This document shows positions 3,401-30,414 of a stretch of DNA of 64,000 nt, piece by piece (the first letter of the stretch is position 1; each line of letters opens with the position of its first letter). The stretch covers positions 837,062-901,061 of the forward strand of contig CP066698.1 in assembly GCA_016432645.1 (NCBI GenBank), given 5' to 3'. The translations under genes were made by a program, and so were the position numbers. The DNA is from Candidatus Falkowbacteria bacterium (lineage in GTDB: Bacteria; Patescibacteriota; Patescibacteriia; Patescibacteriales; UBA12465). Below the pieces are notes generated by a model. That model was not told the origin of the DNA and did no database searches. It saw only the letters and a list, made by a program, of their open reading frames with translations.

Positions 3401-6164
3401 TAAACGTACTGCTTCTACTAGCGATGATTCTTGCCGTGGCGGTTCCGGAACAAGTATTTCTGCTAATCCCGCTGATCCAAGTTTTGGTTACTGCGGTTAT
3501 TATAATTGTTTTAGTACAACTACTCCGCCAATCGGCGACCCAGCTACCTGTGCTTCTTCCACTCCCGTAAAAATTGGTGCCTATAAAGACGCCCCGACCT
3601 GTGTTGATGGTTGCGCCGCTAACCCCGGACAAGATTTTTGTTCATTATTCAATGGCAAAAAAGATGAATGTACTTTAGCCGCTTCTTGTTGTTTCGATCA
3701 GGCGACCGCTACTTGTAAAAGTGGTTCGCAAATTCCGAGCGGAGTTAATTTAGGATATTGTGCGTATTATGATTGTCAAGATATTAATGGCGTTAGTACT
3801 TGCGATCAAACCCCTAGAACTTCCGGTAAATTTAATAATTTAAATACTTGTTCTACTCGTTGCGGGAATGCCGAAGGCGGTGTTGGCCAGGATTGTGTTT
3901 CTCCATTGGCGACGGCTACTTGTAATCTTGGACTTTGTAATTTTCCTGGACATTCTTGTTTAACTGAAGCGGGGGCTAATGCCACCAGCGCCTCTGATTG
4001 CGGCGCCTGTTGTTGTAACCCGGCTGATCCGACTGCTTGTCAAACAGCAGAAGCGCCTGATTTATATTGTCAGCCTGATAAGGGAAATTGTAGCGGCGCT
4101 AGCCGGGGATTATGTTGCGGATGCAAAAATGATGGTGAGTGCGGCAATGCAGCCACCGTCGGGTGCGGCATTGATACTTGCTGCGATTCTCGTCCGGAAG
4201 TGACCGGTTCAGTCCCGGCAACCGGAGCTACTAATGTTTGCCGTAACTCAGTTATTAAAGTTACCTTTAATAAACAAATGGACGTCGCTTCCTTTAGCGC
4301 CAATACGTTACTAATGGAAGAAATGAACTATGGCGGCGCGGTTTGTCCGAGCGGCACGTTTGCTTATGAGGGTGATGGTAATTTTGTGGCCGTTAATCAA
4401 AACTGGTTTACTAATGTTTTTGCTAAATTCAAATCGTATGTTAGCCAGCTTTTTGGCAACCAGGCCCTGGCTGATTTACCGGATCAAAATAAATTATATT
4501 GTTCTTTCCAGGGCAGCATCTCGGGCGAGTATTCTGGCGAGGAAACTGTTTTAAGTTTTACGCCTAATAAATTGTTAACGCCTGATGCTAAATATTTTTT
4601 GATTGTTAAGGGGGATGAAGATTTAAATAGTCAATCAGGCGTTATTAGTTTAAGCGGTATTGGCTTAAACGGCGAAGGTCTGGATGGAGTTGAGGGCGCC
4701 TCTTTGAGCTTCAATAATAAAAATTATAAAAATTCTTATATTGTTCAATTTAAAACCCTATCTGATAAGGGCGCTAATTCTGGGGTCTGTGCTATCAGTC
4801 AAGTTAAAATCGCCCCTGAATCTTATTTATTCAATACAACTGAAAATAGCTTAGATGAAAATGACGCTAATTTTCAGGATAAAACTTTCGATACTAAGCG
4901 CGATAAGGATAAAGTCTTTAAGGCCTTAGCTTATAGCGCTGACGGACAGATAATCCAGCCGATTACTGGTTATTTTTGGGATTGGAAATTTAATTTGAGC
5001 GATGCGAGCGTCGCCACTATGGCTAGCATTGGACCAGATAAAGTTTTAGTAGCTGCTCGTGATGGTGTTACCGAGGGAGAAACAAAGCTATCCGCGACGA
5101 TTGATATGGTTAGATTTTTGGACAATAATTCTTCTGTTAATCCGGGTTGTGCTTGCGCGGATGAGGTTTGCTCCAGTAATTGCCGCAACGCTTTTTCTGC
5201 TGGCGATAATTTGAGTGGCAATGCCAATTTGTATGTCTTTATTTGTGCCAATCCTTGGCCGCCGGTAAACACTAATGGAACTTGGTATCCTTGGAGCGAT
5301 AACTGTACCAATTCTATTGGTGGAGCTTGCAACAACTTTAATTATAAATTCTATTATTGCCGCGATGCTGGAGCTCCGGGAACAGTTGATGATTTGCCGG
5401 CAATTATGGATAAAGCGGTAATTAGAGGACAGAGCGCGACTTTAATTTGCAGTTCTGATAATTCTTCCTGCGCCGGCTTGAATTCTGCCTGCGGCGCTGA
5501 TCAGAATGGCGACGGACGCCTAGATGGCATCTGTATTTGGAATGTTTTGAAAGAGTCATATTTTTTCCGTGAAGCTGGGATTAATGAAGCGGCGATTGAG
5601 ACGGTAACGGACACCGGAACCGGAGGCGATGTTACTGTTACTTGGTGGTCTGCTAACGCCCAAGCGGTTTCCTATAAAGTTTATTATGGTGAAAGCGGCA
5701 AAGCGCTTACTAAGTTTCAAGAATTTAAGATTAGCGATTACTGCGTACCAGTGACTGAGGCTTATAGCTGTACGGCTCATATTTCTTCGCTGAAGAATGG
5801 ACAGTCGTACGATTTCCGTTTAACAGCAATTTCGGCCAATAGAGTTGAGAGTGCGATGAGCGAGGTCGTTAGTGCCAAACCAACCGATCAAGCACCGCCG
5901 CAAGCGCCAATCGGCCTTAATGTCGCTGATGCTGGATCCGTTATCAAGTTTACCTGGCAAACTAATAATGCCTTATTTTATCGTATTTATCGCGGAGTGA
6001 AGAGCAATCTTTACGGCGAATCATATGATTCCGCTAATAATGCCTCCTCTTTATCTTGGGACAAAGCCAAACTTAGCTCCGGTAATAATTATTTTGCAAT
6101 TTCTGCTTTGGACAGTAATGGTAATGAAAGCGCTAAATCAGCAGAGATAATATTTTTTAAATAA
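453..6164 (+). CDS. Giant (1903 aa) membrane-anchored cysteine-rich cell-surface protein with a VirB2/TrbC-like pilin N-terminus plus IPT/TIG, Big_5-like and FN3 modules
   Basis: Uninterrupted ORF with a GTG start. The N-terminus has a signal-like segment followed by two hydrophobic helices around a short polar loop (GVIALGLIIYAGFLWMTSNGEEDKISQAKKIL...LAVILASWAIATFVINKL). Three IPT/TIG-like modules follow (PPVITDVSPLGG..., PFIISFSPTQGTAGQYVTITGSGFG..., ICKLEPKQGGVSTPVKVYGEYLG...). Next come very long Cys-rich tracts and an SbsA/Big_5-like module (PEVTGSVPATGATNVCRNSVIKVTFNKQMD). Two C-terminal FN3-like modules close the protein (VTVTWWSANAQAVSYKVYYG..., PIGLNVADAGSVIKFTWQT..YRIYRG). Confidence 0.85.
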   Translation: MKTKFNKKLFLLIVLVVGLFAWRLVFAQDFGTEAVNNGLNGALAGGDPREMVGRIINIALGFLGVIALGLIIYAGFLWMTSNGEEDKISQAKKILVSASIGLAVILASWAIATFVINKLSGAISGNGGNTICTNGQSSSCGCGGSMVCVNGSWGGCVGSDCSINPSQTSCDASPNPGCQIENNMCAPSDYCDSNCACQPKAGAGESCDADVSNATCDADNNMCAQYLSCDANTCTCFGPPVITDVSPLGGFCNENNNKACATDSDCATGCNLDTPNGTANNFLTISGKNFGEYAAGQSQVVFMGNSLNGRNPSEINPVCVNFWQDDQIIIAVPAGVASGSIKVVAKDGAEDITNDDYGPKIPDFVANSISRPGLCLISPNKGALSSSVSYQGINLYSGQAYFGNYQNNVQGLDSNFSHPSGLSGTAATPNIRSGESGSFVVNNISGNQERSNYLKFVKEADPNDGPFIISFSPTQGTAGQYVTITGSGFGGARGNSHVYFASAEANYSFPPVCASSVWGDKQVVVKVPDGLANGSYLIRMVVNGKTIDSQQLNPNVFRVDNSLSLKTSICKLEPKQGGVSTPVKVYGEYLGQVNRDALVQFNPAKQVYGVVAQDNGADIVPVNVPAESITGPVKVVKNGEWGNELNFEVSACSSDAECPGQVCCPGNTYKKGTCAVNLAACLIDIPTSVFEWNFNTGFVVNPNDPTESCSTLADYYGACQVNATCPNVPGACSPYAGGTKTTVANCDFSCASVTGCGVFGAPCTYDATLNKCVKDGSAGVCSLPKNQTFRINNQDISLSLTCNASGKWETKTNTSCPDGWVRGSNNICVDTSSSCGICAIGLSCAQLGSGGRCVSDTICPAGSVCENNPDISQPDSCVSVRGASCDCCCRIENSAQDCCAPLECKGTCGQDTTDDGAGFGSCSGCANVGTTVAEHDAACNCAGHGGQYCSITAQNPEGICTDCSGLVGLSSCSEHNAACCFDAKRTASTSDDSCRGGSGTSISANPADPSFGYCGYYNCFSTTTPPIGDPATCASSTPVKIGAYKDAPTCVDGCAANPGQDFCSLFNGKKDECTLAASCCFDQATATCKSGSQIPSGVNLGYCAYYDCQDINGVSTCDQTPRTSGKFNNLNTCSTRCGNAEGGVGQDCVSPLATATCNLGLCNFPGHSCLTEAGANATSASDCGACCCNPADPTACQTAEAPDLYCQPDKGNCSGASRGLCCGCKNDGECGNAATVGCGIDTCCDSRPEVTGSVPATGATNVCRNSVIKVTFNKQMDVASFSANTLLMEEMNYGGAVCPSGTFAYEGDGNFVAVNQNWFTNVFAKFKSYVSQLFGNQALADLPDQNKLYCSFQGSISGEYSGEETVLSFTPNKLLTPDAKYFLIVKGDEDLNSQSGVISLSGIGLNGEGLDGVEGASLSFNNKNYKNSYIVQFKTLSDKGANSGVCAISQVKIAPESYLFNTTENSLDENDANFQDKTFDTKRDKDKVFKALAYSADGQIIQPITGYFWDWKFNLSDASVATMASIGPDKVLVAARDGVTEGETKLSATIDMVRFLDNNSSVNPGCACADEVCSSNCRNAFSAGDNLSGNANLYVFICANPWPPVNTNGTWYPWSDNCTNSIGGACNNFNYKFYYCRDAGAPGTVDDLPAIMDKAVIRGQSATLICSSDNSSCAGLNSACGADQNGDGRLDGICIWNVLKESYFFREAGINEAAIETVTDTGTGGDVTVTWWSANAQAVSYKVYYGESGKALTKFQEFKISDYCVPVTEAYSCTAHISSLKNGQSYDFRLTAISANRVESAMSEVVSAKPTDQAPPQAPIGLNVADAGSVIKFTWQTNNALFYRIYRGVKSNLYGESYDSANNASSLSWDKAKLSSGNNYFAISALDSNGNESAKSAEIIFFK

Positions 6165-6180
6165 TAAAAATTAGGAAGTC

Positions 6181-9100
6181 ATGCTAAATGATAAGACTAT
6201 GAAAAACAAGCAAGTGCTAAGAACGAGCAGCTTATTCTTTATGCTTGGGGTTGTTTTTATTTATCTTTTGGCAGGGGCGGTATTTAAAGTTTCTGCCCAA
6301 GAGCAAAATAATGATGCTATCGGCGTCAGAATTATTCCTAACCCGAATCATTATAGCGTCTATCGCTGGTATGCGGCTCAAGGGTTTTCCGGTTCGCCGC
6401 AATCATTGACTGTTGATGGCTATGAAGCTTTGCGTGATGGGCGCACCGTTTATGTTAATGCCGCTAATGTTGATACTTTTGCTAAGGTTGTTTACACCAA
6501 TATTTATTTAATTTCCTATAATCAAGATTATAATGCTAAAACCGTAGATATTTTGGGGCAGTTAATTTCTCATTGGAAATTTAATGATAATTTGCCTTCC
6601 GAAACTTCTACTTGTTCAATTTCGGCCCTGAAGTGTGAGCAAGATGCTGATTGTGCTTCCAATCAATTCTGCTCTAATAATGATACTTGTGCGCTTAAAG
6701 AGCCCAAAAATTGCGCGGTGGATGAAGATTGTCCGGCGAGTTTTTTCTGCGGCAGCCTAAAAGCTAAAATCATCCGTGATTTAAAAAGAATCGGCAAACT
6801 AGAAGAAATTAAAGAAGCTTTGGCTAACTATAAAAAAGTTAATGGTCGTTATCCGCTTCTGAGCGCCGGAACTTATTTGTCTGGGAAAAGTGTTTCTTTG
6901 TGGCCAAGCTGGAATGATATTTTAATTCCTACGCTCGCCATCAAGCAAGCGTTAATCGACCCGATTAATCGTTTAGGCGCTTGTCCGGGATTTAATTCCA
7001 AAACTTGCTGGGATGATAGTAATAAAAAATTTGTTTATAATCCGGCCGGCGCTTATTTAAAATTACCAAAAGATAGTTACGCCTTGGTTTACGGGACTAA
7101 CGAAACTGGCTCTGATTACAATTTATGCGCTGTGCTTGAGACCCATTCCGATCCCAACTATACTTTTTCTCCCAATGACCCTGCTGCCAGCGCCTGCGTA
7201 TCTGATACCGGCATTCTCGCTTCGGGAAATAGTTCTAATTCTGCTCCGGTGATTACTAGCTTAGCGTTGAAGGGCGTTTCTGGTAATGAGTATAATGGGT
7301 TTGTGCAGGCAGTTGATGCCGATGGTGATTCGCTTACTTGGAGTTTACAGCCATTAGCCAGCTCCTGGCCTAATTGGCAGGGAGCGCCGCCAATTATCAA
7401 GGATACTAGCGATGCCAATCAAAAGAAAATTTTTGCCACTCGCGCCGGCAACGCTGGCGTCTATCCAATCGGCATCACGGTTTCAGACAGTAATGGTACT
7501 TCAGTTTCCACAACCACGCGGATTGAAATTAGTTCCTTGTCTTCAGCTGCTCAAGCTGAAGATTATACTTACCATTTAGATCCGACGGTGCCTTTTAATT
7601 ATAATTTTTATGTTTCCGGCGGCAGCAGCGCTCCTTCATTTGCTCTTATCCGAGTAAGCGGCCCGAATATTTTATCAATGCCGGGAATAACTAGAACGGC
7701 CAGTGCCGATGGGCTTAATCGCCAAAAAATAAATTATCAAGGCATTATTTCCACTACCCAGAAATTTACTGGCGATGTTGAGAGCCACTATCGGATACAA
7801 ATTGATAATGGCGCTGGCAATCCCGTAACTGACGATTTTATTATTAAAATAATTGTTGATAAGCCGGTATTAGATTTTAATTGCGCCAATCAATCACGTA
7901 TTAATTATGCCTATAAATGCAGCTTAGGTTCAACGGTTCAAGGCAATCACACCCTGACTTACGCTGTCACTTCAGCAATGCCTGCCGGGCTTAATCTTTC
8001 TGCTTCCAGCAATAACCAAAATATGGTTTATTTGGAAGGGAATACTGTGGCTGCCAGAGTCGGTCAAGAAGTAAAAGTTCAAGCGATTAATGAATATGGA
8101 ACCGCTACAGAAAAAAGTTTTATTTTAAATGTTAATACTTATTGCGGCGACGGGGTAATTGAAAAGCCTAATACCGAAGGCCGTGGCGGCGTTAGAAATG
8201 ATGGTCAAGAGGCTTGCGATGGCAGCGGTAATATTGCAACTAGTGCAGCTACTAGTAATAAAGATTTCCAATACGCTTGCAATACCACCTCAATCGCCTC
8301 CACCCCCTATCCGATTACCGGCAATAATTATTGTATCTTCAAGTCGCCCTTAGATGGCGGTGGTTTCTGCGGCGACACCTATTGCCAAACTAAATATGAA
8401 AATATAACCAATTGTCCCTTTGATTGTGATCCTAATTATTTTGGTACTGACCCGACTTTAAACGAGGGCAAAGAAGTTCCCCTTGATTGCAACAACGGTT
8501 TGTATTGTGATAAGGGATATGAATGTACTAGCTCCGGCGTTTGCCAGAAAAAATGCTGGGCGATTACCGAGAAAGACGCGCGAGTCGTCTCGGTAGCCGA
8601 GGGTGATGCAGTTTTAGCCAATAAAAACTATCAGACTTGGGTGGATCCTCATAAGCAGCCATTGTTTAATTTTACCAGCGCGCAGTTAAATAATAATTAT
8701 GTTGATGGTACTAAAATTTGCAGTAATTCTAATGAAGGAGTAAAAATTCCTAATCCTTTAAGTGATTGTAGCATAATCAAACTAGATAACACCCGATGTA
8801 TTAGCAAATGGGCTTCTGATGCCTCTAATGCCATTAAAGACTCTGCCGCTAAGTTTACTTATTGTCCGGTTGGATTTCAAAATAAATTAACCCCTTCAAG
8901 TGCCCGTTATTCAGGTCAATGCAAACAAGTCTGGACTGACTTGGGCGGTTGGAGAACGCGGATTCAATGGACTTGTACCGGTGACTTGGCAGCTAATCGG
9001 TGTTATCAAGACGAATGTCGAACTGCTGGCAGTACAGTATTGGATGGTTTGATGAATGAGGTTGGGCTTTGTGTTAAAAAACCGATTGTTACTCCGCCAC

Positions 9101-9852
9101 CGGGAGATCCTTGTGACAGCGTTTATAACGACACCTGTCCCACGGGCCAGCATTGCGAAGGGGCTTATGGACATTGTGAATCTATGGAAAGCGGCCAGAC
9201 AGGAAATTACGGTGCTGAATGTGCGCAATATGACGAATATCGCTGCCCAGGGGCTAATGTTCCCGGAGGCTGTGATTGGGCTTTAGATCAGCAGGGAATT
9301 TGTGTTTCCAATGCTAATACCTGCACCCCATCTTGTCCGGCTAATTATTGCGGTACGGATGGTTGCGGCGGCACTTGTGCTTGTGCTAATACCACCGATT
9401 ATACTTGCACTAATAATCAATGTACTTTGATTCCAACTTGCCCTGCCGGCGTAATCAGCGGCTATTCTTATCCAAAAATTAAATATGGTTCAACCTACGA
9501 AGCTAAGACCAATGTTGCTTTCCGCCCGGAGGGAGGATATTACAGTACCAGTATATTTTGTAACAATAGCGGAGTAGCGATGATTACTGGGACTGCTGGT
9601 CCCTTTGCTAATCCTGGTTATCGTTGTACGGATGGCAATTGGTATTTGTCAACTTTTGGTTATTATACAGTTTGTTTGCCTAACTGCTCGGCCGGAACCG
9701 TTGATGATTATAATCACGGCGCTTTAGAAAGCGGCGGCCCGAATAGTACGCAAGCGGTTACTAAAATCATAGCCGGCGGCGCTAAAACTTGTACCGCCAC
9801 CGCTAACTGTATGGACGGTGCAGTGACAATTACTAATGAGTCTTGTAATTAA
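6181..9852 (+). CDS. Giant (1223 aa) secreted/anchored cysteine-rich surface protein with an embedded type IV pilin-like globular domain and cadherin-like Ig domains
   Basis: N-terminal hydrophobic signal/anchor (SSLFFMLGVVFIYLLAGAVFKVSAQ). An internal segment, IRDLKRIGKLEEIKEALANYKKVNGRYP, matches the motif that normally follows the N-terminal helix of type IV pilins and pseudopilins. A dystroglycan/cadherin-like module is present (APVITSLALKGVSGNEYNGFVQAVDADGDSLTWSL). YCGDGVIEKPNTEGRGG..DGQEACDG resembles the CGDG...ECDDG Cys-rich repeat. The C-terminal third is very Cys-rich. Confidence 0.85.
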   Translation: MLNDKTMKNKQVLRTSSLFFMLGVVFIYLLAGAVFKVSAQEQNNDAIGVRIIPNPNHYSVYRWYAAQGFSGSPQSLTVDGYEALRDGRTVYVNAANVDTFAKVVYTNIYLISYNQDYNAKTVDILGQLISHWKFNDNLPSETSTCSISALKCEQDADCASNQFCSNNDTCALKEPKNCAVDEDCPASFFCGSLKAKIIRDLKRIGKLEEIKEALANYKKVNGRYPLLSAGTYLSGKSVSLWPSWNDILIPTLAIKQALIDPINRLGACPGFNSKTCWDDSNKKFVYNPAGAYLKLPKDSYALVYGTNETGSDYNLCAVLETHSDPNYTFSPNDPAASACVSDTGILASGNSSNSAPVITSLALKGVSGNEYNGFVQAVDADGDSLTWSLQPLASSWPNWQGAPPIIKDTSDANQKKIFATRAGNAGVYPIGITVSDSNGTSVSTTTRIEISSLSSAAQAEDYTYHLDPTVPFNYNFYVSGGSSAPSFALIRVSGPNILSMPGITRTASADGLNRQKINYQGIISTTQKFTGDVESHYRIQIDNGAGNPVTDDFIIKIIVDKPVLDFNCANQSRINYAYKCSLGSTVQGNHTLTYAVTSAMPAGLNLSASSNNQNMVYLEGNTVAARVGQEVKVQAINEYGTATEKSFILNVNTYCGDGVIEKPNTEGRGGVRNDGQEACDGSGNIATSAATSNKDFQYACNTTSIASTPYPITGNNYCIFKSPLDGGGFCGDTYCQTKYENITNCPFDCDPNYFGTDPTLNEGKEVPLDCNNGLYCDKGYECTSSGVCQKKCWAITEKDARVVSVAEGDAVLANKNYQTWVDPHKQPLFNFTSAQLNNNYVDGTKICSNSNEGVKIPNPLSDCSIIKLDNTRCISKWASDASNAIKDSAAKFTYCPVGFQNKLTPSSARYSGQCKQVWTDLGGWRTRIQWTCTGDLAANRCYQDECRTAGSTVLDGLMNEVGLCVKKPIVTPPPGDPCDSVYNDTCPTGQHCEGAYGHCESMESGQTGNYGAECAQYDEYRCPGANVPGGCDWALDQQGICVSNANTCTPSCPANYCGTDGCGGTCACANTTDYTCTNNQCTLIPTCPAGVISGYSYPKIKYGSTYEAKTNVAFRPEGGYYSTSIFCNNSGVAMITGTAGPFANPGYRCTDGNWYLSTFGYYTVCLPNCSAGTVDDYNHGALESGGPNSTQAVTKIIAGGAKTCTATANCMDGAVTITNESCN

Positions 9853-21589: not shown

Positions 21590-24349
21590 ATGGAAAATAA
21601 TAAAATAGCGGCCGATGTTTCTGCTCAGCGGGTTAATTTAGCGTTATCAGGAATGCATTGCGCTTCTTGCGCTAATTTAATCGAGAAGTCATTAAAGAAG
21701 CTTCCGGGCGTAAAACAAGCCAGTGTTAATTTTGCCGCCGAGAAAGCCAGTATTTTTTACAATAGCACTGAAGTAAAAATTGCATCTTTGCTCCAAGCTG
21801 TTAAAAAAGCCGGATACTATGCGGAAGAAATAGATGTTCAAGATGCTGATTTTGAGAAACGTAGGCAAGAAAAAGAAATTAAAAAATACGCGCAAAAATT
21901 TTGGTTCAGTTTCTTTTTTAGCTTGCCGATGTTGTATTTCATGCTTTTGGACTTTTTTGCTATTCCTGGAAAGACAGCATTACTGCCCTATGTGGGGATT
22001 ATTTCTTTGTTGTTAACTATCCCTATCCAATTTGTGGTGGGAGCCGGTTTTTATAAAGGCTTTTGGTCAAGCTTAAAAATGAAAACTTTTAACATGGATA
22101 GTTTGGTCGCGATTGGCACCTCCACTGCTTTTATTTATAGCTTGGCAAACTTCATTAGTTACTTTATAAAAACGGATTCCCTTATCGGCTTAGGCGGGAA
22201 AATTCCAGAACTATATTTTGAAACTGCTGCTTATCTTATAACTTTTGTGGTCTTGGGTAAATGGTTGGAAATTAGAACTAAAAGCAGGACCGGGGATGCT
22301 ATTAAAAGATTAATGGGGTTGAAGGCTAAAACGGCGCGGGTTATTCGCCATAGACAAACGTTGGATATCGCTTTAGAAGAGGTCGTTTGCGGGGATATTA
22401 TTCTAGTTCGTCCTGGCGAGAAGATTCCGGTCGATGGCAAAATAGTTAAAGGTTCTTCAGCAGTTGATGAGTCAATGATTAGCGGCGAGAGTTTGCCGAT
22501 AGAAAAAATGGTTGGCGATTCAGTTATTGGTAGTACAATCAATAAAACCGGCAGCTTTGAATTTGAAGCAGTGAGAGTCGGTAGCGAGACTATCCTGGCG
22601 CGGATAATTAGGCTGATTGAGGATGCCCAAGGATCTAAAGCTCCTATCCAAGGATTTGCTGATCGAATAGCCGCCGTTTTCGTGCCCATTGTTATTGGGC
22701 TCGCCGTGCTTACTTTTTTGGTCTGGTTTTTCTTATTGGGTTCGACACTTTCTTTTGCCTTAATGGCTTTTACTTCGGTAATTGTAATTGCCTGTCCTTG
22801 CGCCTTAGGTTTAGCTACACCAACTTCGCTTATGGTCGGTACCGGCAAGGGAGCGGAATATGGAATATTAATAAAAGGTGGAGAGCCGCTACAGGCGGCT
22901 GGTCATATTAAAGTCATTATTTTTGATAAGACCGGAACTTTAACTAAGGGCCAGCCGGAAGTGACTGATATTATTGCCTTAGAGAAAATGGCTGAAGCGG
23001 ATGTTTTAGCGATAGCAGCCAGCTTGGAAAAACTATCTGAGCATCCGCTCGCTGAAGCAATTTTCACTCGGGCTGACAGACAATCGGTTTCTCTTAAGGA
23101 AATAAACAATTTCTCGGCCATCCCTGGTCTTGGGGTTCACGGGGAGATTGCCGGGGTAGATTATTATTTTGGTAATCGCCGCCTAATAACGGAAAAATTG
23201 GGACATGTAATTGATGCTATTTATAATCAATTAGTGGAACTAGAATCTCAGGGGAAAACAGTCATACTCTTGGCTACTAAAGATAAAGTGATTGGGGGGA
23301 TTGCAGTTGCCGACACCGTTAAAAGTACTTCAGCAGAAGCAGTTGCCAAATTAAAAAAGTTAGGTCTCCTGGTTTATATGATAACCGGCGACAATGAACG
23401 CACCGCCAAGACCATCGCCGCCCAAGTGGGTATCGATAATATTTTGGCCGAAGTTTTGCCTGAAGATAAGGCTAATGAGGTCAAAAAGCTCCAGGAACGC
23501 GGGTATAAGGTAGCAATGGTGGGAGATGGCATTAATGACGCGCCGGCGCTTGCCCAGGCCGATTTGGGCATTGCCATGGGGTCTGGTACAGACGTCGCGA
23601 TGGAGGCTGGAGGGATTGTTATTATAAAAAATGATTTAAATGATGTTGTCACCGCTTTTCAACTGGCACGTGAAACTATGGGTAAGATTAAACAGAATAT
23701 GTTTTTTGCTCTGTTTTATAATGTTATTGGCATTCCGATTGCCGCTCGAATTTTTATGTCTTTCGGTTTGGTTCTAAAGCCGGAATTGGCCGGCTTAGCC
23801 ATGGCCTTCAGTTCTATTTCGGTGGTCGGGAATTCTTTGCTCTTGCGATATTTTAAACCCAGTAAAAGGAACTATTTATCGCTTATTGCTCCCGTGCTTA
23901 TGATTATTGTTTTTAGCTTTGGTTTTTGGGAGTTTGCTAAGCTCAGCTCTAATATGGAAGCAGGCAGCATGCAAGTTTTGTTAGTTTCTAAACAGAAGGC
24001 CGCTGATTTTGATGTCTTTATTGCCGAGCATGAAGCCAAAATTAACTTTCTCGATGGTCAGCCAAAATTATTTTTAGGAATTGACGTTTTTCCGAGCGAT
24101 ATAAGGCTTGATGAAGGGTCGCTGGTTTTAGGGGATAACGAAATGGTCATTGGCTATAATGAGGCGATGATGATGAAGAAAGAAAAACTCATTCAGGGGT
24201 CGGGTGACAGCCTGAAAGACTTCTTCGGTTTATCAAGTGTTAAGGTTGTCGGTATTTTGGAGCAAACTGGAACACCAATGGATGATTATCATTTTGTTAA
24301 TCAGGCGACGCTGGCTAAAATAAGCGGTGCTTCTGCGTCAAAGCCTTAA
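21590..24349 (+). CDS. copA: Copper-translocating P1B-type ATPase with an atypical C-terminal extension
   Basis: N-terminal HMA domain ([12 protein letters not shown]), TGES-type actuator region (SGESLPIEK), CPC in a TM segment ([11 protein letters not shown]), the DKTGTLT phosphorylation site, and GDGINDAP. An extra 162 aa follow the usual end. Confidence 0.9.
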
Positions 24350-24415
24350 TAAGATTAAAAATGATTGTGGATAACTTTAAATAATTTTTATAATTATTTG
24401 AAAATTAGCAAAATC

Positions 24416-24438
24416 GGGGTCACTTTGACCCCTTTTTT
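24416..24438 (+). terminator. Rho-independent terminator after copA
   Basis: Stem GGGGTCA (24416-24422), loop CTT, stem TGACCCC (24426-24432), T6 run. Confidence 0.7.
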
Positions 24439-24461
24439 AAAATTTGCTAAAATAGCATCAG

Positions 24462-24509
24462 ACACAAGATTTAGTGGGTCACATAGAAAAGCCCCACAAA
24501 ATATAGGTT
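24462..24509 (+). promoter_or_regulatory. Tandem NrdR boxes upstream of nrdR-nrdD-nrdG
   Basis: ACACAAGATTTAGTGG (24462-24477) matches the 16-bp NrdR-box palindrome acaCwAtATaTwGtgt at 13/16 positions. CCACAAAATATAGGTT (24494-24509) matches at 12/16. The box starts are 32 bp apart. Confidence 0.55.
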
Positions 24510-24557
24510 TTTACTAGGTTTTTCAAAGATTTTTTTAAAATTTAAGCTTAAAGCTTT

Positions 24558-25016
24558 ATGAAATGCCCAATTTGCTACTACCCTGATACCAAGGTAGTTG
24601 ATTCTCGGGTGGCTTCCGATGGATTATCGATTCGTCGGCGGCGTGAATGTCTAAAATGCTCTTTCCGTTTCTCTACCTATGAAGAAATAGAATTGTTGGA
24701 TTTAGTGATTGTTAAGCGTGATGGGCGTCGCGAATCCTATAGCCGCGAAAAATTGGTCGGGGGTTTAAAAAAATCTTGCGAGAAGCGCCCGATTACCGAA
24801 GACTTATTTAAAAAATTAGTACACTCCACCGAACGTGATTTACAGAGACTGAAGAAGACCGAAATAACTTCCAAACAAATCGGTCAAGCAGTCATGAAAA
24901 ATTTAAAAAAATTAGACCCGGTTGCTTATATTCGTTATGCCTCGGTTTATGAATCCTTTAAGGATGCTCAGGAATTCCGCAAGGAGCTTAATAAGCTCAT
25001 TAAAGAAAAAAAATAA
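24558..25016 (+). CDS. nrdR: Transcriptional repressor NrdR
   Basis: Zn-ribbon MKCPICYYPDTKVVDSR...CLKC followed by an ATP-cone domain. It sits directly upstream of nrdD. Confidence 0.93.
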   Translation: MKCPICYYPDTKVVDSRVASDGLSIRRRRECLKCSFRFSTYEEIELLDLVIVKRDGRRESYSREKLVGGLKKSCEKRPITEDLFKKLVHSTERDLQRLKKTEITSKQIGQAVMKNLKKLDPVAYIRYASVYESFKDAQEFRKELNKLIKEKK

Positions 25017-25044
25017 TTAATCACATATTTTCATTTCAATTCCT

Positions 25045-27105
25045 ATGCCAGAGACTATCAGTAAAATCATTAAACGATCGGGAGAAATCGCAGATTTCAA
25101 TCAAGAAAAAATTAATAAAGCGATTTACAAAGCCGCTTTTGCTACCGGCCTGGATGATAAGCATCTGGCTAAAAAATTAACCGACCAAGTGGTCATGAAG
25201 GTTAATTCTAAATTTCATAAAAATAGTATCCCGGCAGTTGAGGAAATTCAGGATATCGTTGAAGAGGTGCTCCTGGAAAATAAACAGATTAAGGTCGCCA
25301 AAAATTATATTTTATACCGTGACCAGCACCGTCAATTACGCGATATTAATAACGCTACCGCCGATGAGAAGCTAATGGAAGATTATTTAGGGCGTGCCGA
25401 TTGGCGCCTTAAGGAGAATAGCAACATGAGTTTTTCTGTTCAGGGTTTGAATAATTATATTGCTTCCGCTATTTCGGCTAAATATTGGTTGAACAAGATG
25501 TATCCAGAAAACATTCGCCAAGCTCATGTTAACGGCGATTTGCATATCCATGATTTAGGATTATTAGCGCCTTATTGCTGCGGTTGGGATTTGAAAGACT
25601 TGTTGATTAAGGGTTTTAAGGGGGTCAGTGAAAAAGTTCAGAGCAATGCCCCTAAGCATTTTCGAAGCGCTCTTGGCCAGATTGTTAACTTTTTTTATAC
25701 TCTTCAGGGGGAAGCGGCTGGTGCTCAGGCTTTTGCTAATTTTGATACTTACCTCTCGCCCTTTATTCGTTATGATAATTTGAGTTATGAAGAAGTTAAG
25801 CAGGGATTACAAGAATTCATGTTTAACATCAATGTCCCGACTAGAGTCGGCTTTCAGACTCCTTTTACCAATGTTACTTTGGATGTTACCCCTTCGCCGA
25901 TGATTGGCGAAGAAAACGTAATCATCGGCGGCAAAATCATGCCGGAGAAATATAAGGACTTTCAAAAAGAAATGGACATGTTTAATCAGGCTTTTGCAGA
26001 AGTCATGTTAGCCGGCGATTCTACTGGGCGTGTCTTTGGTTTTCCAATCCCGACTTATAATGTTGATAAGGATTTTGATTGGGACCGAGAATGTTTGAAG
26101 CCGGCTTGGGAAATGACCGCCAAATATGGCATCCCATATTTTTCTAATTTTGTTAATTCTGATATGAATCGCGACGATGCTCGCTCTATGTGCTGCCGTT
26201 TGCGTTTGGATAATCGAGAATTAAGAAAGCGTGGCGGCGGTCTATTTGGCGCCAACCCGCTTACCGGTTCTTTAGGAGTAGTAACCATCAATTTGCCGCG
26301 TTTAGGTTATTTGTCTAAAACAAAAGAAGAATTTAAAAAGAAACTGGTTAATCTCATGGAGATTGCCAAAGAGAGCTTGGAAATTAAGCGTAAAATTATT
26401 GAAAAATTTACCGATGACCGTTTGTACCCTTACTCCATGTATTATCTAGAAAATATTAAGGCCCGTTTCGGAGACTACTGGCGCAATCATTTCTCCACTA
26501 TTGGAATTAACGGGATGAACGAAGCCGCCCTTAATTTAATGGGCAAAGATATTTCTACCCCGGAAGGACATGCCTTTGCGGCCGAAATTCTGGATTTCAT
26601 GAGAGAAAAATTAATGGATTTCCAGAACGAGACCAATAACCTTTATAATTTAGAAGCCACTCCGGGAGAAGGCTGTACCTATCGCTTTGCCAAAAAAGAC
26701 CAGCAAATTTATCCGGGGATAATTTGTTCTAATACGGAGGCGGTCCAAAAATTTAAGGCTGATCCTTATTATACCAACTCCACCCATCTTCACGTTAGTT
26801 ATACTGATGATATTTTTTCCGCACTTGATTTACAGGATGATTTACAAACTAAATATACCGGAGGTACAGTTCTTCATGGCTATTTAGGAGAGCGAATGTC
26901 AAATGGCGATGCGGCTAAGAAATTAGTCCAAAAGATTGTTAATAACTATAAACTTCCTTATTTCACAATTACTCCAACCTTTTCAATTTGTCCTAAACAT
27001 GGTTATTTATCCGGTGAACATAAATATTGTCCGAAGTGCGATGAAGAATTGGGTTTTAAAGAAAGTGTGGAAGATATCCGTTTGGCCGAACAAAATCAGC
27101 TATAA
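25045..27105 (+). CDS. nrdD: Anaerobic (class III) ribonucleoside-triphosphate reductase, large fragment lacking the glycyl-radical domain
   Basis: An N-terminal ATP-cone, CCRLRLDNRELRKRGGGLFGANPLTGSLGV, NLEATPGEG, and the C-terminal Zn site CPKHG...CPKCDEE. The ORF stops at TAA 27103 before any RVxGY glycyl-radical motif. Confidence 0.9.
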   Translation: MPETISKIIKRSGEIADFNQEKINKAIYKAAFATGLDDKHLAKKLTDQVVMKVNSKFHKNSIPAVEEIQDIVEEVLLENKQIKVAKNYILYRDQHRQLRDINNATADEKLMEDYLGRADWRLKENSNMSFSVQGLNNYIASAISAKYWLNKMYPENIRQAHVNGDLHIHDLGLLAPYCCGWDLKDLLIKGFKGVSEKVQSNAPKHFRSALGQIVNFFYTLQGEAAGAQAFANFDTYLSPFIRYDNLSYEEVKQGLQEFMFNINVPTRVGFQTPFTNVTLDVTPSPMIGEENVIIGGKIMPEKYKDFQKEMDMFNQAFAEVMLAGDSTGRVFGFPIPTYNVDKDFDWDRECLKPAWEMTAKYGIPYFSNFVNSDMNRDDARSMCCRLRLDNRELRKRGGGLFGANPLTGSLGVVTINLPRLGYLSKTKEEFKKKLVNLMEIAKESLEIKRKIIEKFTDDRLYPYSMYYLENIKARFGDYWRNHFSTIGINGMNEAALNLMGKDISTPEGHAFAAEILDFMREKLMDFQNETNNLYNLEATPGEGCTYRFAKKDQQIYPGIICSNTEAVQKFKADPYYTNSTHLHVSYTDDIFSALDLQDDLQTKYTGGTVLHGYLGERMSNGDAAKKLVQKIVNNYKLPYFTITPTFSICPKHGYLSGEHKYCPKCDEELGFKESVEDIRLAEQNQL

Positions 27106-27210
27106 AAACCAAGTTTAACAGCCATTGTAATTTGTAAAATTATAATTTATAATATAAATACCAACCGCTTCTGATTTTAGAAATAGAAGTAGCTGGTAGA
27201 CATAAAAAAT

Positions 27211-27351
27211 ATGAGCCCTATACAAACTCAAAGACAAGAATGTATCGTCTACAGCCGTGTTGTCGGCTGGCTAACTCCCGTAAAAAACTATAATCCTGGG
27301 AAAGCCAGTGAGTATAAGGATCGTAAGACTTTTAAAGTTTGCGCTGAATAA
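27211..27351 (+). CDS. Separately encoded NrdD glycyl-radical domain (46 aa)
   Basis: Not in the supplied track because it is under 60 aa. ATG 27211 to TAA 27349-27351 translates to MSPIQTQRQECIVYSRVVGWLTPVKNYNPGKASEYKDRKTFKVCAE. This is the canonical NrdD C-terminal segment (SRVVG[YW], NxGK, ExxDRK). It is in frame with nrdD but separated from it by five stops. Confidence 0.75.
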   Translation: MSPIQTQRQECIVYSRVVGWLTPVKNYNPGKASEYKDRKTFKVCAE

Positions 27352-27360
27352 GTAAGCCCT

Positions 27361-28086
27361 ATGATTATCGGCGGTTTGGAGAAATTATCAATTCTCGACT
27401 ATCCCGATCATCTAGCGGCCATTATCTTTACCCAAGGATGTAATTTCCGATGTCACTTCTGTTATAACCCTATGCTTGTCCTGCCCCGTAAGGGAGAGGA
27501 TGAAAAAAATAAAAAAGAAAAAGGTCTTTCTCCGCTTTCCCCTGAAGACCTTTTTCTTTTTTTAAAGGAAAGATATGGCCGTTTAGACGGCGTAGTCATT
27601 ACCGGCGGGGAGCCGACTTTGCATCCCGACCTGCCTTCTTTTATTAGCCAGATAAAAGCTCTCGGCTATGATATTAAGTTGGACTCTAATGGCACTAATC
27701 CCGAGATGCTTCAGGAATTGATAGCTAAAAAATTGATTGATTATATCGCGATGGATATCAAGGCGCCGCTTGCTAAGTATGAAAATACCGTGAGTGCTAT
27801 TGTCGCCTGTGATAATCTGGAAAAAAGTGTTAAAATTATAATTGAGAGCGGCTTGCCGCATGAGTTCAGAACTACAGTCGTGCCCGGTCTTCTGGATAAA
27901 GAAGATTTTCAGGCAATGGGCGAGTTGATTAAGGGTGCTGATAATTGGTATTTGCAAAAGTTTAAATCTGATACCGATTTAGTTGACGGGGCTTTTCAGG
28001 GAAAAGCTGCTTATACTGACCGGGAAATGGCCGAGTTTGCGGCTATTGGTCGGAAGGCGGCCGGCGTTTGCGAAGTTCGCAGTTGA
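27361..28086 (+). CDS. nrdG: Anaerobic ribonucleotide reductase activating protein (radical SAM)
   Basis: CNFRCHFCYNP (CxxxCxxC) cluster motif and VVITGGEPTL. It is adjacent to nrdD. Confidence 0.9.
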   Translation: MIIGGLEKLSILDYPDHLAAIIFTQGCNFRCHFCYNPMLVLPRKGEDEKNKKEKGLSPLSPEDLFLFLKERYGRLDGVVITGGEPTLHPDLPSFISQIKALGYDIKLDSNGTNPEMLQELIAKKLIDYIAMDIKAPLAKYENTVSAIVACDNLEKSVKIIIESGLPHEFRTTVVPGLLDKEDFQAMGELIKGADNWYLQKFKSDTDLVDGAFQGKAAYTDREMAEFAAIGRKAAGVCEVRS

Positions 28087-28100
28087 TAAATTATAAAAAT

Positions 28101-28430
28101 ATGATAAAAACCTCATCAGCCGCTACCAGCGGTGAGCCGTTATCAGCCTCCGAAAAATCAGAGGCCGTTATTTCTGGTTTAGAAGCGGAAAAAATTTTAG
28201 AACAATTGCAGCAGGCTGAAAAATTAAATCGGGAAATATTGAGATCAGTAAAATTTATTAAGCACTATTTTGCTTGGCAATCAGTAATGTCAGCCATTAA
28301 ATATTCCCTATTAGCCGCTGTTATTATTTTGGGCGTAGTTTCTTGGCGCAGTATTGTTGATTATACCAGCCAAGCAATTGGGAATTCTCTGGTCGGCGTT
28401 AGTGTCCCCGGGGGCACGATTTTTAAGTAA
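28101..28430 (+). CDS. Small membrane protein, function unknown
   Basis: ORF with one TM helix (YSLLAAVIILGVVSW). The start is placed at ATG 28101 instead of the track's non-ATG codon at 28068, which overlaps nrdG. Confidence 0.5.
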   Translation: MIKTSSAATSGEPLSASEKSEAVISGLEAEKILEQLQQAEKLNREILRSVKFIKHYFAWQSVMSAIKYSLLAAVIILGVVSWRSIVDYTSQAIGNSLVGVSVPGGTIFK

Positions 28431-28452: not shown

Positions 28453-30414
28453 ATGGCGGGTAATATAGCAGTTTTTGCGCAAACAAATTATCGCAATGAA
28501 TTGAAAAAATTCGGCATCAAAACTGACGACCGCCGCCGCCACATGTATTTGATTGGGAAAACTGGTATGGGCAAGTCCACGGTTTTGGAAAATATGATTG
28601 TAGATGATATCCGTAACGGTTATGGCGTAGCGGTTGTTGATCCGCACGGTGATTTGGCGGAAAAAATAATGGATTATATTCCCAATGACCGTCTTAAAGA
28701 TGTTGTCTATTTTAATCCTTCTGATATCAATTTTCCGATTGCCTTTAACGTTGTGGAGCAAGTTGAGCCGCATTTGCGGCACTTAGTCGCTTCTGGGTTG
28801 ATTGGCGTTTTTCAAAAATTATGGGCCGATTCTTGGGGGCCGCGCTTGGAATATATTTTAAGAAATGCAATTTTAGCGATTTTGGATTTTCCCGGTTCAA
28901 CGCTCTTAGGTGTTGTCCGCATGCTTTCCGATAAGGGTTATCGCAAACGCGTAGTTGCCAATATTACTGATCCGGTCGTGAAGGCATTTTGGGAAAAAGA
29001 ATTTTCCGGTTATGCCGACAAGTTTGCCTCAGAAGCAGTTTCACCTATTCAAAATAAAGTTGGACAGTTTTTGTCCAGCTCCTTGATGCGCAACATTATT
29101 GGTCAGGTTAAATCGGCGATTGATATTCGCGATATTATGGATAACGGCAAGATTTTAATTATGAATCTGTCTAAAGGCCGCATCGGTGAAGATAATTCCG
29201 CACTTTTAGGGGCAATGATGATTACTAAAATCCAGTTAGCGGCTATGAGCCGGGTTGATATTCCGGAAAAAGAGCGCCGTGATTTTTATTTATATATTGA
29301 TGAATTCCAAAATTTTTCCACCGATAGTTTTGCTAATATTTTATCGGAAGCGAGAAAATACCGTTTAAATTTAATTTTAGCGCACCAATATATTGAACAG
29401 TTGAGTGAAAAAGTTAAGCCGGCGGTTTTTGGCAACGTCGGAACTTTAGTTGTTTTTCGAGTTGGCGCGGCTGATGCGGAAGAGCTAGTCAAAGAGTTTA
29501 CCCCGACTTTTACCGAAGAGGATATTGTTAATCTGCCGAAATATGAAATGTATCTGAAGCTAATGATTGACGGGATTGCTTCGTCGCCGTTTTCTGCGAT
29601 TGGTTTACCGCCTTTAAGAATTGATGAACGCACCAATAACACGGAAAAAGTAATTAATTATTCGCGCGAGAAATATGCCAGTGATCGTGAGTCTGTAGAA
29701 GAAAAAATTATGCGCTGGCATGAGAGCTATGGGGAAGATGAAAAGTCAGCGCCTCGAGCCGACATTAGGATTCCAGCCCAGAATTTAGGAGCTAGTCCTA
29801 CTAATGTTTATAGCCCGGCAGTTCCTGTTTCAACTCAGTCTAGCGCTCCTTATCAAAATCAGACGCCCAGTAAGCCGATTTTGAAAGCGCCAAACGCTAA
29901 TTTTCCGGTTTCCCCGTTCAAAGAAAAATCCGGCTATGATGCCGTTTGTGCTAGCTGCGGCGTCGCTACTAAAATTGCCTTTATCCCTGATGGTATCCGC
30001 CCGGTTTATTGTAAGGACTGCTTAAGCAAGAAAAAAGAAGAAAAACGTTTGGAATTAGAAGCGCGCAAACAAGCCAAAGAAATAGAAAGAAAAGGTTTGG
30101 TAGAAGTAAAAGACGAACCAATATTTCAGCCTGAGGCCACCTTATCTTTAGGAGATTTAAATAAAATGGCCCCGGTTGATTTTAAGGGTCGAGTTATTAA
30201 AACCCCGGCTCCTAAAGAGACGTTAAGTTCTAAAGAGGCGCCAATTTTAAAACCGAGCCCCGCTAATTCTAGTCAGCTATCACCCGTAAATAAAAATTCA
30301 ACTGGCAGTAAAAACGACGGGTCGATTCCGGTAGCGGATATTGTCAGCGAGGTGAAGGCGGCTATCGGCCAAGAACAAGATTTGCCGGAAGGAGCCGATA
30401 TTATTATCAAATAA
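28453..30414 (+). CDS. TraD/VirD4 (type IV coupling protein)-like P-loop ATPase, soluble, with a C-terminal CxxC...CxxC zinc ribbon
   Basis: Walker A GKTGMGKST, Walker B FYLYIDEFQNF, and LILAHQY. There is no N-terminal TM segment. The tail is low-complexity and contains CASCGVATKIAFIPDGIRPVYCKDC followed by a K/E-rich segment. Confidence 0.75.
   Translation: MAGNIAVFAQTNYRNELKKFGIKTDDRRRHMYLIGKTGMGKSTVLENMIVDDIRNGYGVAVVDPHGDLAEKIMDYIPNDRLKDVVYFNPSDINFPIAFNVVEQVEPHLRHLVASGLIGVFQKLWADSWGPRLEYILRNAILAILDFPGSTLLGVVRMLSDKGYRKRVVANITDPVVKAFWEKEFSGYADKFASEAVSPIQNKVGQFLSSSLMRNIIGQVKSAIDIRDIMDNGKILIMNLSKGRIGEDNSALLGAMMITKIQLAAMSRVDIPEKERRDFYLYIDEFQNFSTDSFANILSEARKYRLNLILAHQYIEQLSEKVKPAVFGNVGTLVVFRVGAADAEELVKEFTPTFTEEDIVNLPKYEMYLKLMIDGIASSPFSAIGLPPLRIDERTNNTEKVINYSREKYASDRESVEEKIMRWHESYGEDEKSAPRADIRIPAQNLGASPTNVYSPAVPVSTQSSAPYQNQTPSKPILKAPNANFPVSPFKEKSGYDAVCASCGVATKIAFIPDGIRPVYCKDCLSKKKEEKRLELEARKQAKEIERKGLVEVKDEPIFQPEATLSLGDLNKMAPVDFKGRVIKTPAPKETLSSKEAPILKPSPANSSQLSPVNKNSTGSKNDGSIPVADIVSEVKAAIGQEQDLPEGADIIIK

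Follow-up and report, generated by a model that had tools for sequence, protein, structure and literature searches.

A separate small gene for the glycyl-radical loop at split class III ribonucleotide reductase loci of Patescibacteria and phages

Introduction

Class III ribonucleotide reductases (RNRs), such as those of Thermotoga maritima, Neisseria bacilliformis, Prevotella copri and phage T4, are single-chain NrdD enzymes with an ATP-cone, a catalytic barrel, an MCCR finger loop, a zinc site and a glycyl-radical loop of the type RVxG(Y/W), and the gene of the activase NrdG lies next to theirs. All of these elements are also found at the nrdD locus described here, which lies in a stretch of 64,000 nucleotides from a Candidatus Falkowbacteria bacterium (contig CP066698.1, positions 837,062 to 901,061; in the following called the window, to which all coordinates refer). 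Whereas in the single-chain enzymes the radical loop is part of the same polypeptide, at this locus it is the product of a separate small gene.

Glycyl-radical activases need the Gly loop outside the barrel, and oxygen destroys glycyl-radical enzymes (GREs) by cleavage at the radical glycine; the one remedy known is the spare-part protein GrcA (YfiD) of pyruvate formate-lyase. In the NrdD of P. copri the glycyl-radical domain comprises the zinc site, a buried Gly loop and a C-terminal tail, and it is highly mobile according to cryo-electron microscopy and hydrogen-deuterium exchange (PMC11226230). The finger-loop motifs of NrdD fall into the classes MGCR and MCCR; the MCCR enzymes use another reductant than the MGCR type, which depends on formate (PMC9669993). 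For pyruvate formate-lyase (PFL), its activating enzyme PFL-AE can activate the free-standing GrcA (YfiD), and activated YfiD restores PFL that has been cleaved by oxygen (PMC8683613). A review of June 2026 names the formate lyases as the sole GRE class with identified spare-part proteins and makes no mention of a two-gene NrdD arrangement (PMC13450708). Interruptions of phage nrdD genes by introns or homing endonucleases have been described (PMC3653736; PMC4520616). Beyond these phage cases and the class II NrdJa/NrdJb, we found neither a two-gene NrdD nor an NrdD spare part in the literature accessible as full text, a coverage outside which subscription-only papers and database notes lie. 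A two-gene class III RNR, which is widespread in Patescibacteria and phages, appears to have gone undescribed.

Results

The nrdD gene of the window ends before the glycyl-radical loop

The large-subunit gene nrdD (25045..27105; like all features below on the + strand) encodes 686 aa and stops with TAA at 27103-27105. The protein is composed of an ATP-cone (aa 7-96) and a catalytic barrel (aa 124-667) with the finger loop M382-C383-C384-R385 and the C-terminal zinc site C649/H652/C662/C665 (CPKH...CPKC), the residues of which are invariant or nearly so and the metal binding of which is predicted from sequence. In a 60-sequence alignment (A2) C383, C384, R385, N535, E537, C649 and C662 are invariant. 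Residues 124-667 match positions 1-529 of the 562 positions of Pfam NRDD (PF13597; E 5e-185), and the NCBIfam model NF006126 is covered from position 3 to 652 with 1034 bits, the cut-off being 548. In an AlphaFold2 model of the body the predicted local distance difference test (pLDDT) is mostly above 90, and among known folds the model comes closest to solved structures of class III RNRs (E 1e-24 to 1e-33). Hence the 10-stranded alpha/beta barrel of NRDD, the double-cysteine MCCR finger loop, site of the thiyl-radical cysteine, and the C-terminal zinc site are all on the large polypeptide, and an NrdG gene (TIGR02495) is close by. The RVxG(Y/F/W) motif on the barrel's own chain is missing. The open reading frame (ORF) ends 21 residues past the zinc site without a glycyl-radical loop, and SRVVGW sits on a downstream ORF of 46 codons.

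This small-subunit gene (27211..27351) starts with ATG at 27211, 105 nt downstream of nrdD and in the same frame, and ends with TAA at 27349-27351, 9 nt before nrdG. It encodes 46 aa with SRVVG19W followed by NxGK and ExxDRK; the codon of the radical glycine, Gly19, is GGC at 27265-27267. Residues 8-41 match positions 530-562 of Pfam NRDD (E 6.7e-7), the very end of the family that the large ORF lacks, and positions 649-683 of NF006126 likewise fall on the small ORF. A Pfam scan (E <= 0.1) gave NRDD alone and no PFL-type family, and among the NCBIfam models only those of NrdD matched. The initial annotation, made from the letters of the window, had proposed this gene structure and had taken the small ORF for the radical segment of NrdD; its coordinates are all correct, and this assignment is borne out by the domain scans.

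The two products are colinear with a fused NrdD. The nearest intein-free fused homolog in our representative library, P0253 (711 aa), aligns at residues 7-663 with residues 5-665 of the large subunit (57% identity) and at residues 667-701 with residues 9-43 of the small one (66% identity over 35 residues, E 2e-13). Within P0253 only three residues separate the two aligned segments, and every profile position of fused NrdD is accounted for across both ORFs. What the two-piece version has in excess of the fused form is a tail of 21 residues on the large subunit, then a stop, a spacer and a start, and about eight residues at the N-terminus of the small one. With its position between zinc ribbon and Gly loop, the cut goes through the glycyl-radical domain, if the definition from the NrdD of P. 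copri is applied. The original description of the small ORF as a free-standing glycyl-radical domain therefore holds for the Gly loop and the C-terminal tail, but not for the zinc ribbon, which stays on the large subunit.

Small peptides of this kind are numerous. A search with the 46-aa peptide returned 136 database clusters; the 120 listed matches are all free-standing proteins of 41-65 aa, and none of them is the C-terminus of a long NrdD. Some are labelled "anaerobic ribonucleoside-triphosphate reductase" by NCBI or JGI. A profile built from ten diverse small peptides had at least 8000 matches, the best 120 of which are all 44-69 aa long. With phmmer the 46-aa peptide, too short a query for this purpose, had no match among the PDB sequences.

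The split is conserved in related genomes

A scan of one genome per GTDB species yielded 498 relatives, and we examined the best 80. These loci come from Patescibacteria and "Falkowbacteria" metagenome-assembled genomes (MAGs) of many studies, with NrdD identities of 73-98%; stretches of 10 kb were available for them, next to the 64 kb of the window. At 79 of the 80 loci, tblastn searches with the four proteins of the window recovered the same order of nrdR, nrdD body, small ORF and nrdG. The sole exception, L005, meets a contig edge 61 nt past nrdD. No fused nrdD occurs at any of the 79 loci, nrdR is upstream of nrdD in all related loci, and nrdG lies 3' of the small ORF wherever the locus reaches that far, with a gap of 2-157 nt. 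The supposition that the split is not due to a sequence error is thereby upheld, and the comparison of related loci showed conservation of both split and small ORF and no random disruption.

The small ORF has its own translation start, which is ATG in 80 of 80 cases (here and in the following counts, 79 relatives plus the window). Its frame relative to the large ORF is the same in 32, +1 in 21 and +2 in 27, without bias (chi-square 2.3, 2 df). The spacers between both ORFs measure 11-201 nt (median 77.5) at 0-34% G+C and contain stops of all three kinds. On codon alignments the Nei-Gojobori pN/pS ranged over 0.05-0.20 in the catalytic body (aa 1-667), 0.09-0.24 in the small ORF and 0.21-0.38 in nrdG. 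With such values the small ORF is a protein-coding gene under strong constraint, its purifying selection being on a par with that of the body.

Only the C-terminal tail of the large subunit departs from this pattern. In the window it comprises aa 668-686 (ELGFKESVEDIRLAEQNQL; 27046..27102), lies outside the Pfam and NCBIfam matches and has no counterpart in fused NrdD. Among the relatives 9-55 aa follow the CPxC motif, and from aa 668 to the end pN/pS reaches 0.47-0.76, which is near neutral. The tail behaves like a leftover linker. Cysteine pairs (CC, CxC, CxxC) end many of these tails (e.g. L037, L039, L041, L045-L047, L066, L068-L070, L076, L077, L080) as well as the small ORFs of L041, L047, L058, L064 and L078; the tail of the window has none. 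They are reminiscent of the redox-shuttle tails in RNRs of classes I and II and could be linked to the thioredoxin-type reduction of MCCR enzymes.

Two further observations concern the small peptide. The loop motif varies to SRVNGW in L067 and L075. Eight residues before the radical glycine (G-8) stands Cys11 (27241-27243 in the window). Of the free-standing peptides 115 of 120 have this Cys; every one of the 80 clade members keeps it, and so do four of four divergent ones. Among fused NrdDs a Cys occupies this position in only 18 of 61, Thr being the commonest residue. The same holds within the lineage with RVMGY-type loops, where fused forms have T, V or I and free forms C. Cys11 might help the peptide to dock via a metal or a disulfide link.

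L005 and L012 are contigs of one MAG (ERP113451_co4_283), and their nrdD bodies are 89% and 86% identical to that of the window; the bin could mix strains, or the gene could be truly duplicated.

Split nrdD in other lineages and the radical loop in viruses

By these comparisons the arrangement is not restricted to the window: a large clade shares it, and it turns up again in other lineages and in phages. As a breadth sample we took the 150 cluster representatives (clusters at 50% identity) that best match the large ORF (43-76% identity) and classed them by motif. About 63 have a Gly loop, about 70 end shortly past the zinc site with a short variable tail, and the rest are fragments. For divergent loop-less representatives we sampled four genomic contexts, and all four contain a separate small NRDD ORF. 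In two of them it is directly downstream of nrdD: 60 aa in the bacterial genome of L084, which has a CPYPH-type zinc site, and 55 aa in L085, where the locus adjoins a phage tail gene. In the other two it stands apart from the large gene. L081 encodes it (50 aa) 2.5 kb upstream of nrdD among many small unannotated ORFs, and in the phage-like L082, which has DnaB, MazG and Rad50-like genes, it follows nrdG (61 aa; order nrdD, DUF7487, nrdG, small ORF). The DUF7487 protein of L082 (353 aa; 5116-6177), whose gene is flanked by the loop-less nrdD and by nrdG, may serve the split system as an accessory factor.

In a rough neighbour-joining tree of 132 NrdD bodies the split and fused forms are interleaved, with 14 multi-member clades that are all split. 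Fitch parsimony on this crude tree, in which some singletons are possibly fragments, requires at least 25 state changes. Repeated fission or fusion of nrdD looks likely from this topology.

Inteins are frequent in the family as a whole. Many of the representatives P0241-P0390 are 800-1900 aa long, and their match to the query is broken up into 2-4 stretches around query residues 172, 222, 270 and 384; the L081 gene (3001-6957) has Hint, Intein_splicing and LAGLIDADG matches. An intein at the split site itself was considered for P0267 and P0314 and rejected, as both proteins simply end past the zinc site.

In IMG/VR the profile of the small peptides had matches in at least 350 viral stretches, of which the best 80 loci (L086-L165) were analysed. 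The Gly-loop motif is on a free-standing ORF of at most 110 aa in 66 of them, on proteins of 111-177 aa in eight and on a fused NrdD in three. Hidden Markov model (HMM) searches over all ORFs in the 6-kb flanks detected neither an NrdD body nor NrdG at 72 of the 80 loci; examples of such orphans are L087 (6001-6141) and L119 (about 6001-6105). The viral neighbours are mostly uncharacterised phage genes, and in two contigs they are uncharacterised proteins and an amidase. Going by these loci, phages seem often to carry the radical module alone.

Several of the viral proteins of 111-177 aa have a CxxC-containing N-terminal extension. In L117, L120, L125, L131, L137, L139 and L149, most of which have the match near 6001-6130, a cysteine-rich stretch precedes the Gly loop in proteins with a length of about 108-157 aa, for example ...LKCxxCFxK...LxNYQxCEVYSRVVGY. 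They look like the whole glycyl-radical domain, zinc ribbon plus loop, standing free.

The spacer and its expression signals

The intergenic spacer of the window (27106..27210) has 105 nt, 25% G+C and, beyond the TAA of nrdD, four in-frame stops. Together with the latter these are the five noted from the start: TAA 27103, TGA 27172 and TAG at 27178, 27184 and 27190. The hexamer TTGTAA reported at 27132-27137 is there, and a second copy at 27125-27130 opens a promoter-like island, TTGTAA-17 nt-TATAAT (27125..27153), with 10/12 consensus matches and a putative function. Among the ten closest relatives, whose spacers are otherwise 32-62% identical to that of the window, the island is the sole conserved block (TTGTAATTT.TAAAATT.TAATTTATAATATAA). 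About 20 loci have identical TTGTAA and TATAAT hexamers with the same spacing, at a distance of 8-69 nt to the ATG.

Downstream of the island a stem-loop (27161..27196) has the arms 27161-27172 and 27185-27196, which contain the hairpin halves GCTTCT (27167-27172) and AGAAGT (27185-27190) of the initial annotation. It covaries in the ten close relatives: 84% of the cells pair, versus 32-50% with the partners slid, two-sided changes are found in all 10 pairs, and none of 500 shuffles attains the observed score. The stem-loop is thus kept in structure, not in sequence. In this subclade an internal promoter and a 5'-terminal stem-loop would drive the small gene and nrdG, and the conserved elements suggest that both genes may be transcribed apart from nrdR-nrdD.

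A spacer promoter as a general feature was rejected. TTGTAA-17-TATAAT is kept in the closer half of the clade only, and over all spacers the best promoter scores are barely above those of shuffles (8.78 vs 8.38). Co-transcription with nrdD is thus the norm: the element is missing from the distant half, and many spacers leave no room for a promoter. A scan for terminator-like sites between the large and the small ORF found none. The Shine-Dalgarno sequence is mostly absent, and an A-rich stretch precedes the ATG of the small ORF. An Rfam scan of 24300-28300 (E <= 10) gave chance-level matches only, none near the gathering score, so that the spacer offers no support for an intron or a riboswitch.

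The operon and its surroundings

In the window nrdR, nrdD, the small ORF and nrdG follow each other in operon-like order, all on the + strand. The nrdR gene (24558..25016) encodes the 152-aa transcriptional repressor of RNR genes (TIGR00244, E 2.9e-54; Zn_ribbon_NrdR and ATP-cone). The radical-SAM activase gene nrdG (27361..28086), with its ATG at 27361, encodes 241 aa (TIGR02495 NrdG2, E 5.7e-60; Radical_SAM domain). Upstream of nrdR a consensus scan found a promoter-like site, TTGACC-17 nt-TAAAAT with TG (24425..24453), which has 10/12 matches and is a consensus match only. NrdR boxes had been claimed for this locus, and a pattern search yielded two box-like 16-mers with 2-3 mismatches, ACACAAGATTTAGTGG (24462-24477) and CCACAAAATATAGGTT (24494-24509). 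Singly such sites are weak, five matches being found in the window versus 3.3 expected. What speaks for them is that they form a pair with starts 32 bp apart and lie between the promoter-like site and nrdR.

About 370 nt past nrdG, with a 120-aa ORF (28068-28430) in between, lies the gene of a TrwB-like homolog of type IV coupling proteins (28453-30414), which has a treble-clef zinc finger. At the start of the window (453-9852) two giant proteins of 1903 and 1223 aa have T4SS-pilin, TIG and Ig-like domains. Further window genes that were scanned include FtsA, FtsZ and SecDF and are typical of a Patescibacteria chromosome.

Discussion

We are strongly convinced that the split of nrdD is genuine and functional. 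Most probably the class III RNR of this locus consists of two separately translated polypeptides, with the radical loop of the small one docking non-covalently on the large subunit. The genes nrdR, nrdD, small ORF and nrdG would form one NrdR-controlled operon. NrdG would generate the radical by removing hydrogen at Gly19 while the small peptide is free or bound loosely. The activated peptide would then enter the large subunit's barrel beside Cys383/384 without a covalent link and restore the geometry of a fused NrdD, after which nucleotide reduction would proceed as in MCCR-type NrdDs. It is more speculative that following oxygen cleavage only the 5-kDa peptide would need to be replaced, not the body of about 79 kDa.

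Some points weigh against this proposal. The making, activation and binding of the small peptide are all predicted from the DNA. AlphaFold2, given the concatenated pieces and a 60-row alignment, was confident about the body, but gave the tail and the whole small peptide pLDDT values of 22-36; without the alignment the mean pLDDT of the concatenated pieces was 38. A second, fused nrdD or another RNR class was judged from the 10-kb loci and the 64-kb window only. Moreover, the number of about 70 loop-less representatives among the 150 rests on motif matching and may include contig-end fragments.

The last but one of these points matters for a rival explanation that we regard as unlikely, though as the best of the alternatives. 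According to it, a complete NrdD is encoded elsewhere, for which the small protein serves as a regulator or, like GrcA, as a spare part, and the adjacent loop-less body has another role or none. Free-standing modules which rescue a damaged enzyme are indeed known for PFL, and the many viral contigs that have the small gene but neither NrdD body nor NrdG within 6 kb fit this idea, because a radical module carried alone can evidently persist on its own. In the cellular genomes, however, all 79 loci place the small gene between a loop-less body and nrdG, all three genes are under purifying selection, and none of the loci has a fused nrdD. Two of the related loci span whole chromosomes of only about 0.9 Mb, a size at which duplicated RNR systems seem unlikely.

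Far less probable is that one fused product is still made, be it by readthrough, frameshifting, bypassing, splicing of a mini-intron or trans-splicing of a split intein. The shared frame of both ORFs in the window would suit such a scheme, the NrdD family is rich in inteins, and phage nrdD genes with group I introns are known (PMC3653736). Nevertheless, the frame offsets are random in the relatives (32/21/27), spacers of 11-201 nt with several stops of all three kinds would have to be crossed, the ATG of the small ORF is universal, and no Rfam family matches the spacer. Intein halves would need far more than the extra residues present, namely a tail of 9-55 and about eight at the start of the small ORF. 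The most telling argument comes from other lineages, where the small gene was found 2.5 kb upstream of nrdD in one case and behind nrdG in another.

That a once fused nrdD is broken and decaying, or that the split is an artefact of sequencing or assembly, we consider the least probable of all, for although the spacer is AT-rich and junk-like with its several stops and the tail of the large subunit evolves almost neutrally, the same split occurs in 79 independent assemblies down to 73% NrdD identity, the small-ORF ATG is kept in 80 of 80, pN/pS is 0.05-0.24 for small ORF and body, the catalytic residues are invariant and nrdR and nrdG are intact, which agrees with the initial view of a functional rather than a decaying locus.

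Why a class III RNR of two polypeptides should be kept in this form is a matter on which we can only offer a tentative thought. Swapping of the oxygen-damaged module as an exchange or repair principle is a speculative rationale, which gains circumstantial support from the phages, since these carry orphan small genes. Such orphans may be auxiliary radical modules for host NrdD bodies, acting in trans, in parallel to the T4 protein Y06I for PFL. Taken to its full extent, the 5-kDa peptide would be a diffusible, exchangeable radical subunit, activated by NrdG, replaced after cleavage by O2 and supplied by phages in trans to a loop-less host body; we put this forward as a possibility that we would not yet favour. 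If true, this would make it the first case, beyond the formate lyases, of a spare-part system or of an obligate radical module.

Should the two-gene NrdD be active, its radical loop works in trans, and it would provide a minimal system for studying how the activase gains access and how the loop enters the barrel. For bacteria with small genomes near oxic-anoxic boundaries it would mean a cheap renewal of an essential enzyme. Short ORFs annotated as "anaerobic ribonucleoside-triphosphate reductase" in metagenomes and phages could then be read as functional subunits or auxiliary genes instead of fragments. For annotation in general, loop-less NrdD genes should not be scored as pseudogenes.

Among the known systems, GrcA/YfiD of E. 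coli and Y06I of phage T4 are likewise small free-standing proteins with a glycyl-radical loop, which dock in a large subunit without a functional loop and for which a partner activase is presumed. The resemblance to GrcA/YfiD drawn at the outset is thus apt with regard to a small free-standing radical module, but does not extend to homology: GrcA is homologous to the C-terminus of PFL, while the small ORF matches NRDD only and is of the NrdD, not the PFL type. GrcA has about 14 kDa and a disordered N-terminus; the peptide here has about 5 kDa. PFL keeps its own loop, with GrcA as a spare, whereas the body here has no loop, neither in the window nor in any of the 79 related loci long enough to show it. 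With such a large subunit, the small one would be obligatory rather than a spare.

RNR catalytic subunits encoded by two genes and thought to assemble non-covalently are also known from Pseudomonas aeruginosa (NrdJa/NrdJb, class II) and Aeromonas phage Aeh1 (NrdA-a/NrdA-b, class Ia). These belong to other RNR classes, are cut at other sites and do not have the radical element separated from the body. In Aeh1 the split was caused by the homing-endonuclease gene mobE; there is no such gene in the spacer here. Nor did we find here the intron structure or the intein and homing-endonuclease domains of the interrupted nrdD genes of phages T4 and 949.

To class I RNRs with NrdA and NrdB the likeness is one of design only, in that the catalytic and the radical-storing subunits are separate. 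If the exchangeable radical subunit considered above is real, it would be a class III counterpart to this separate radical subunit, apparently arisen repeatedly by gene fission. NrdB is a non-homologous, ferritin-like metalloprotein from which the radical is transferred over a long range, whereas here the loop of the small peptide would enter the barrel directly.

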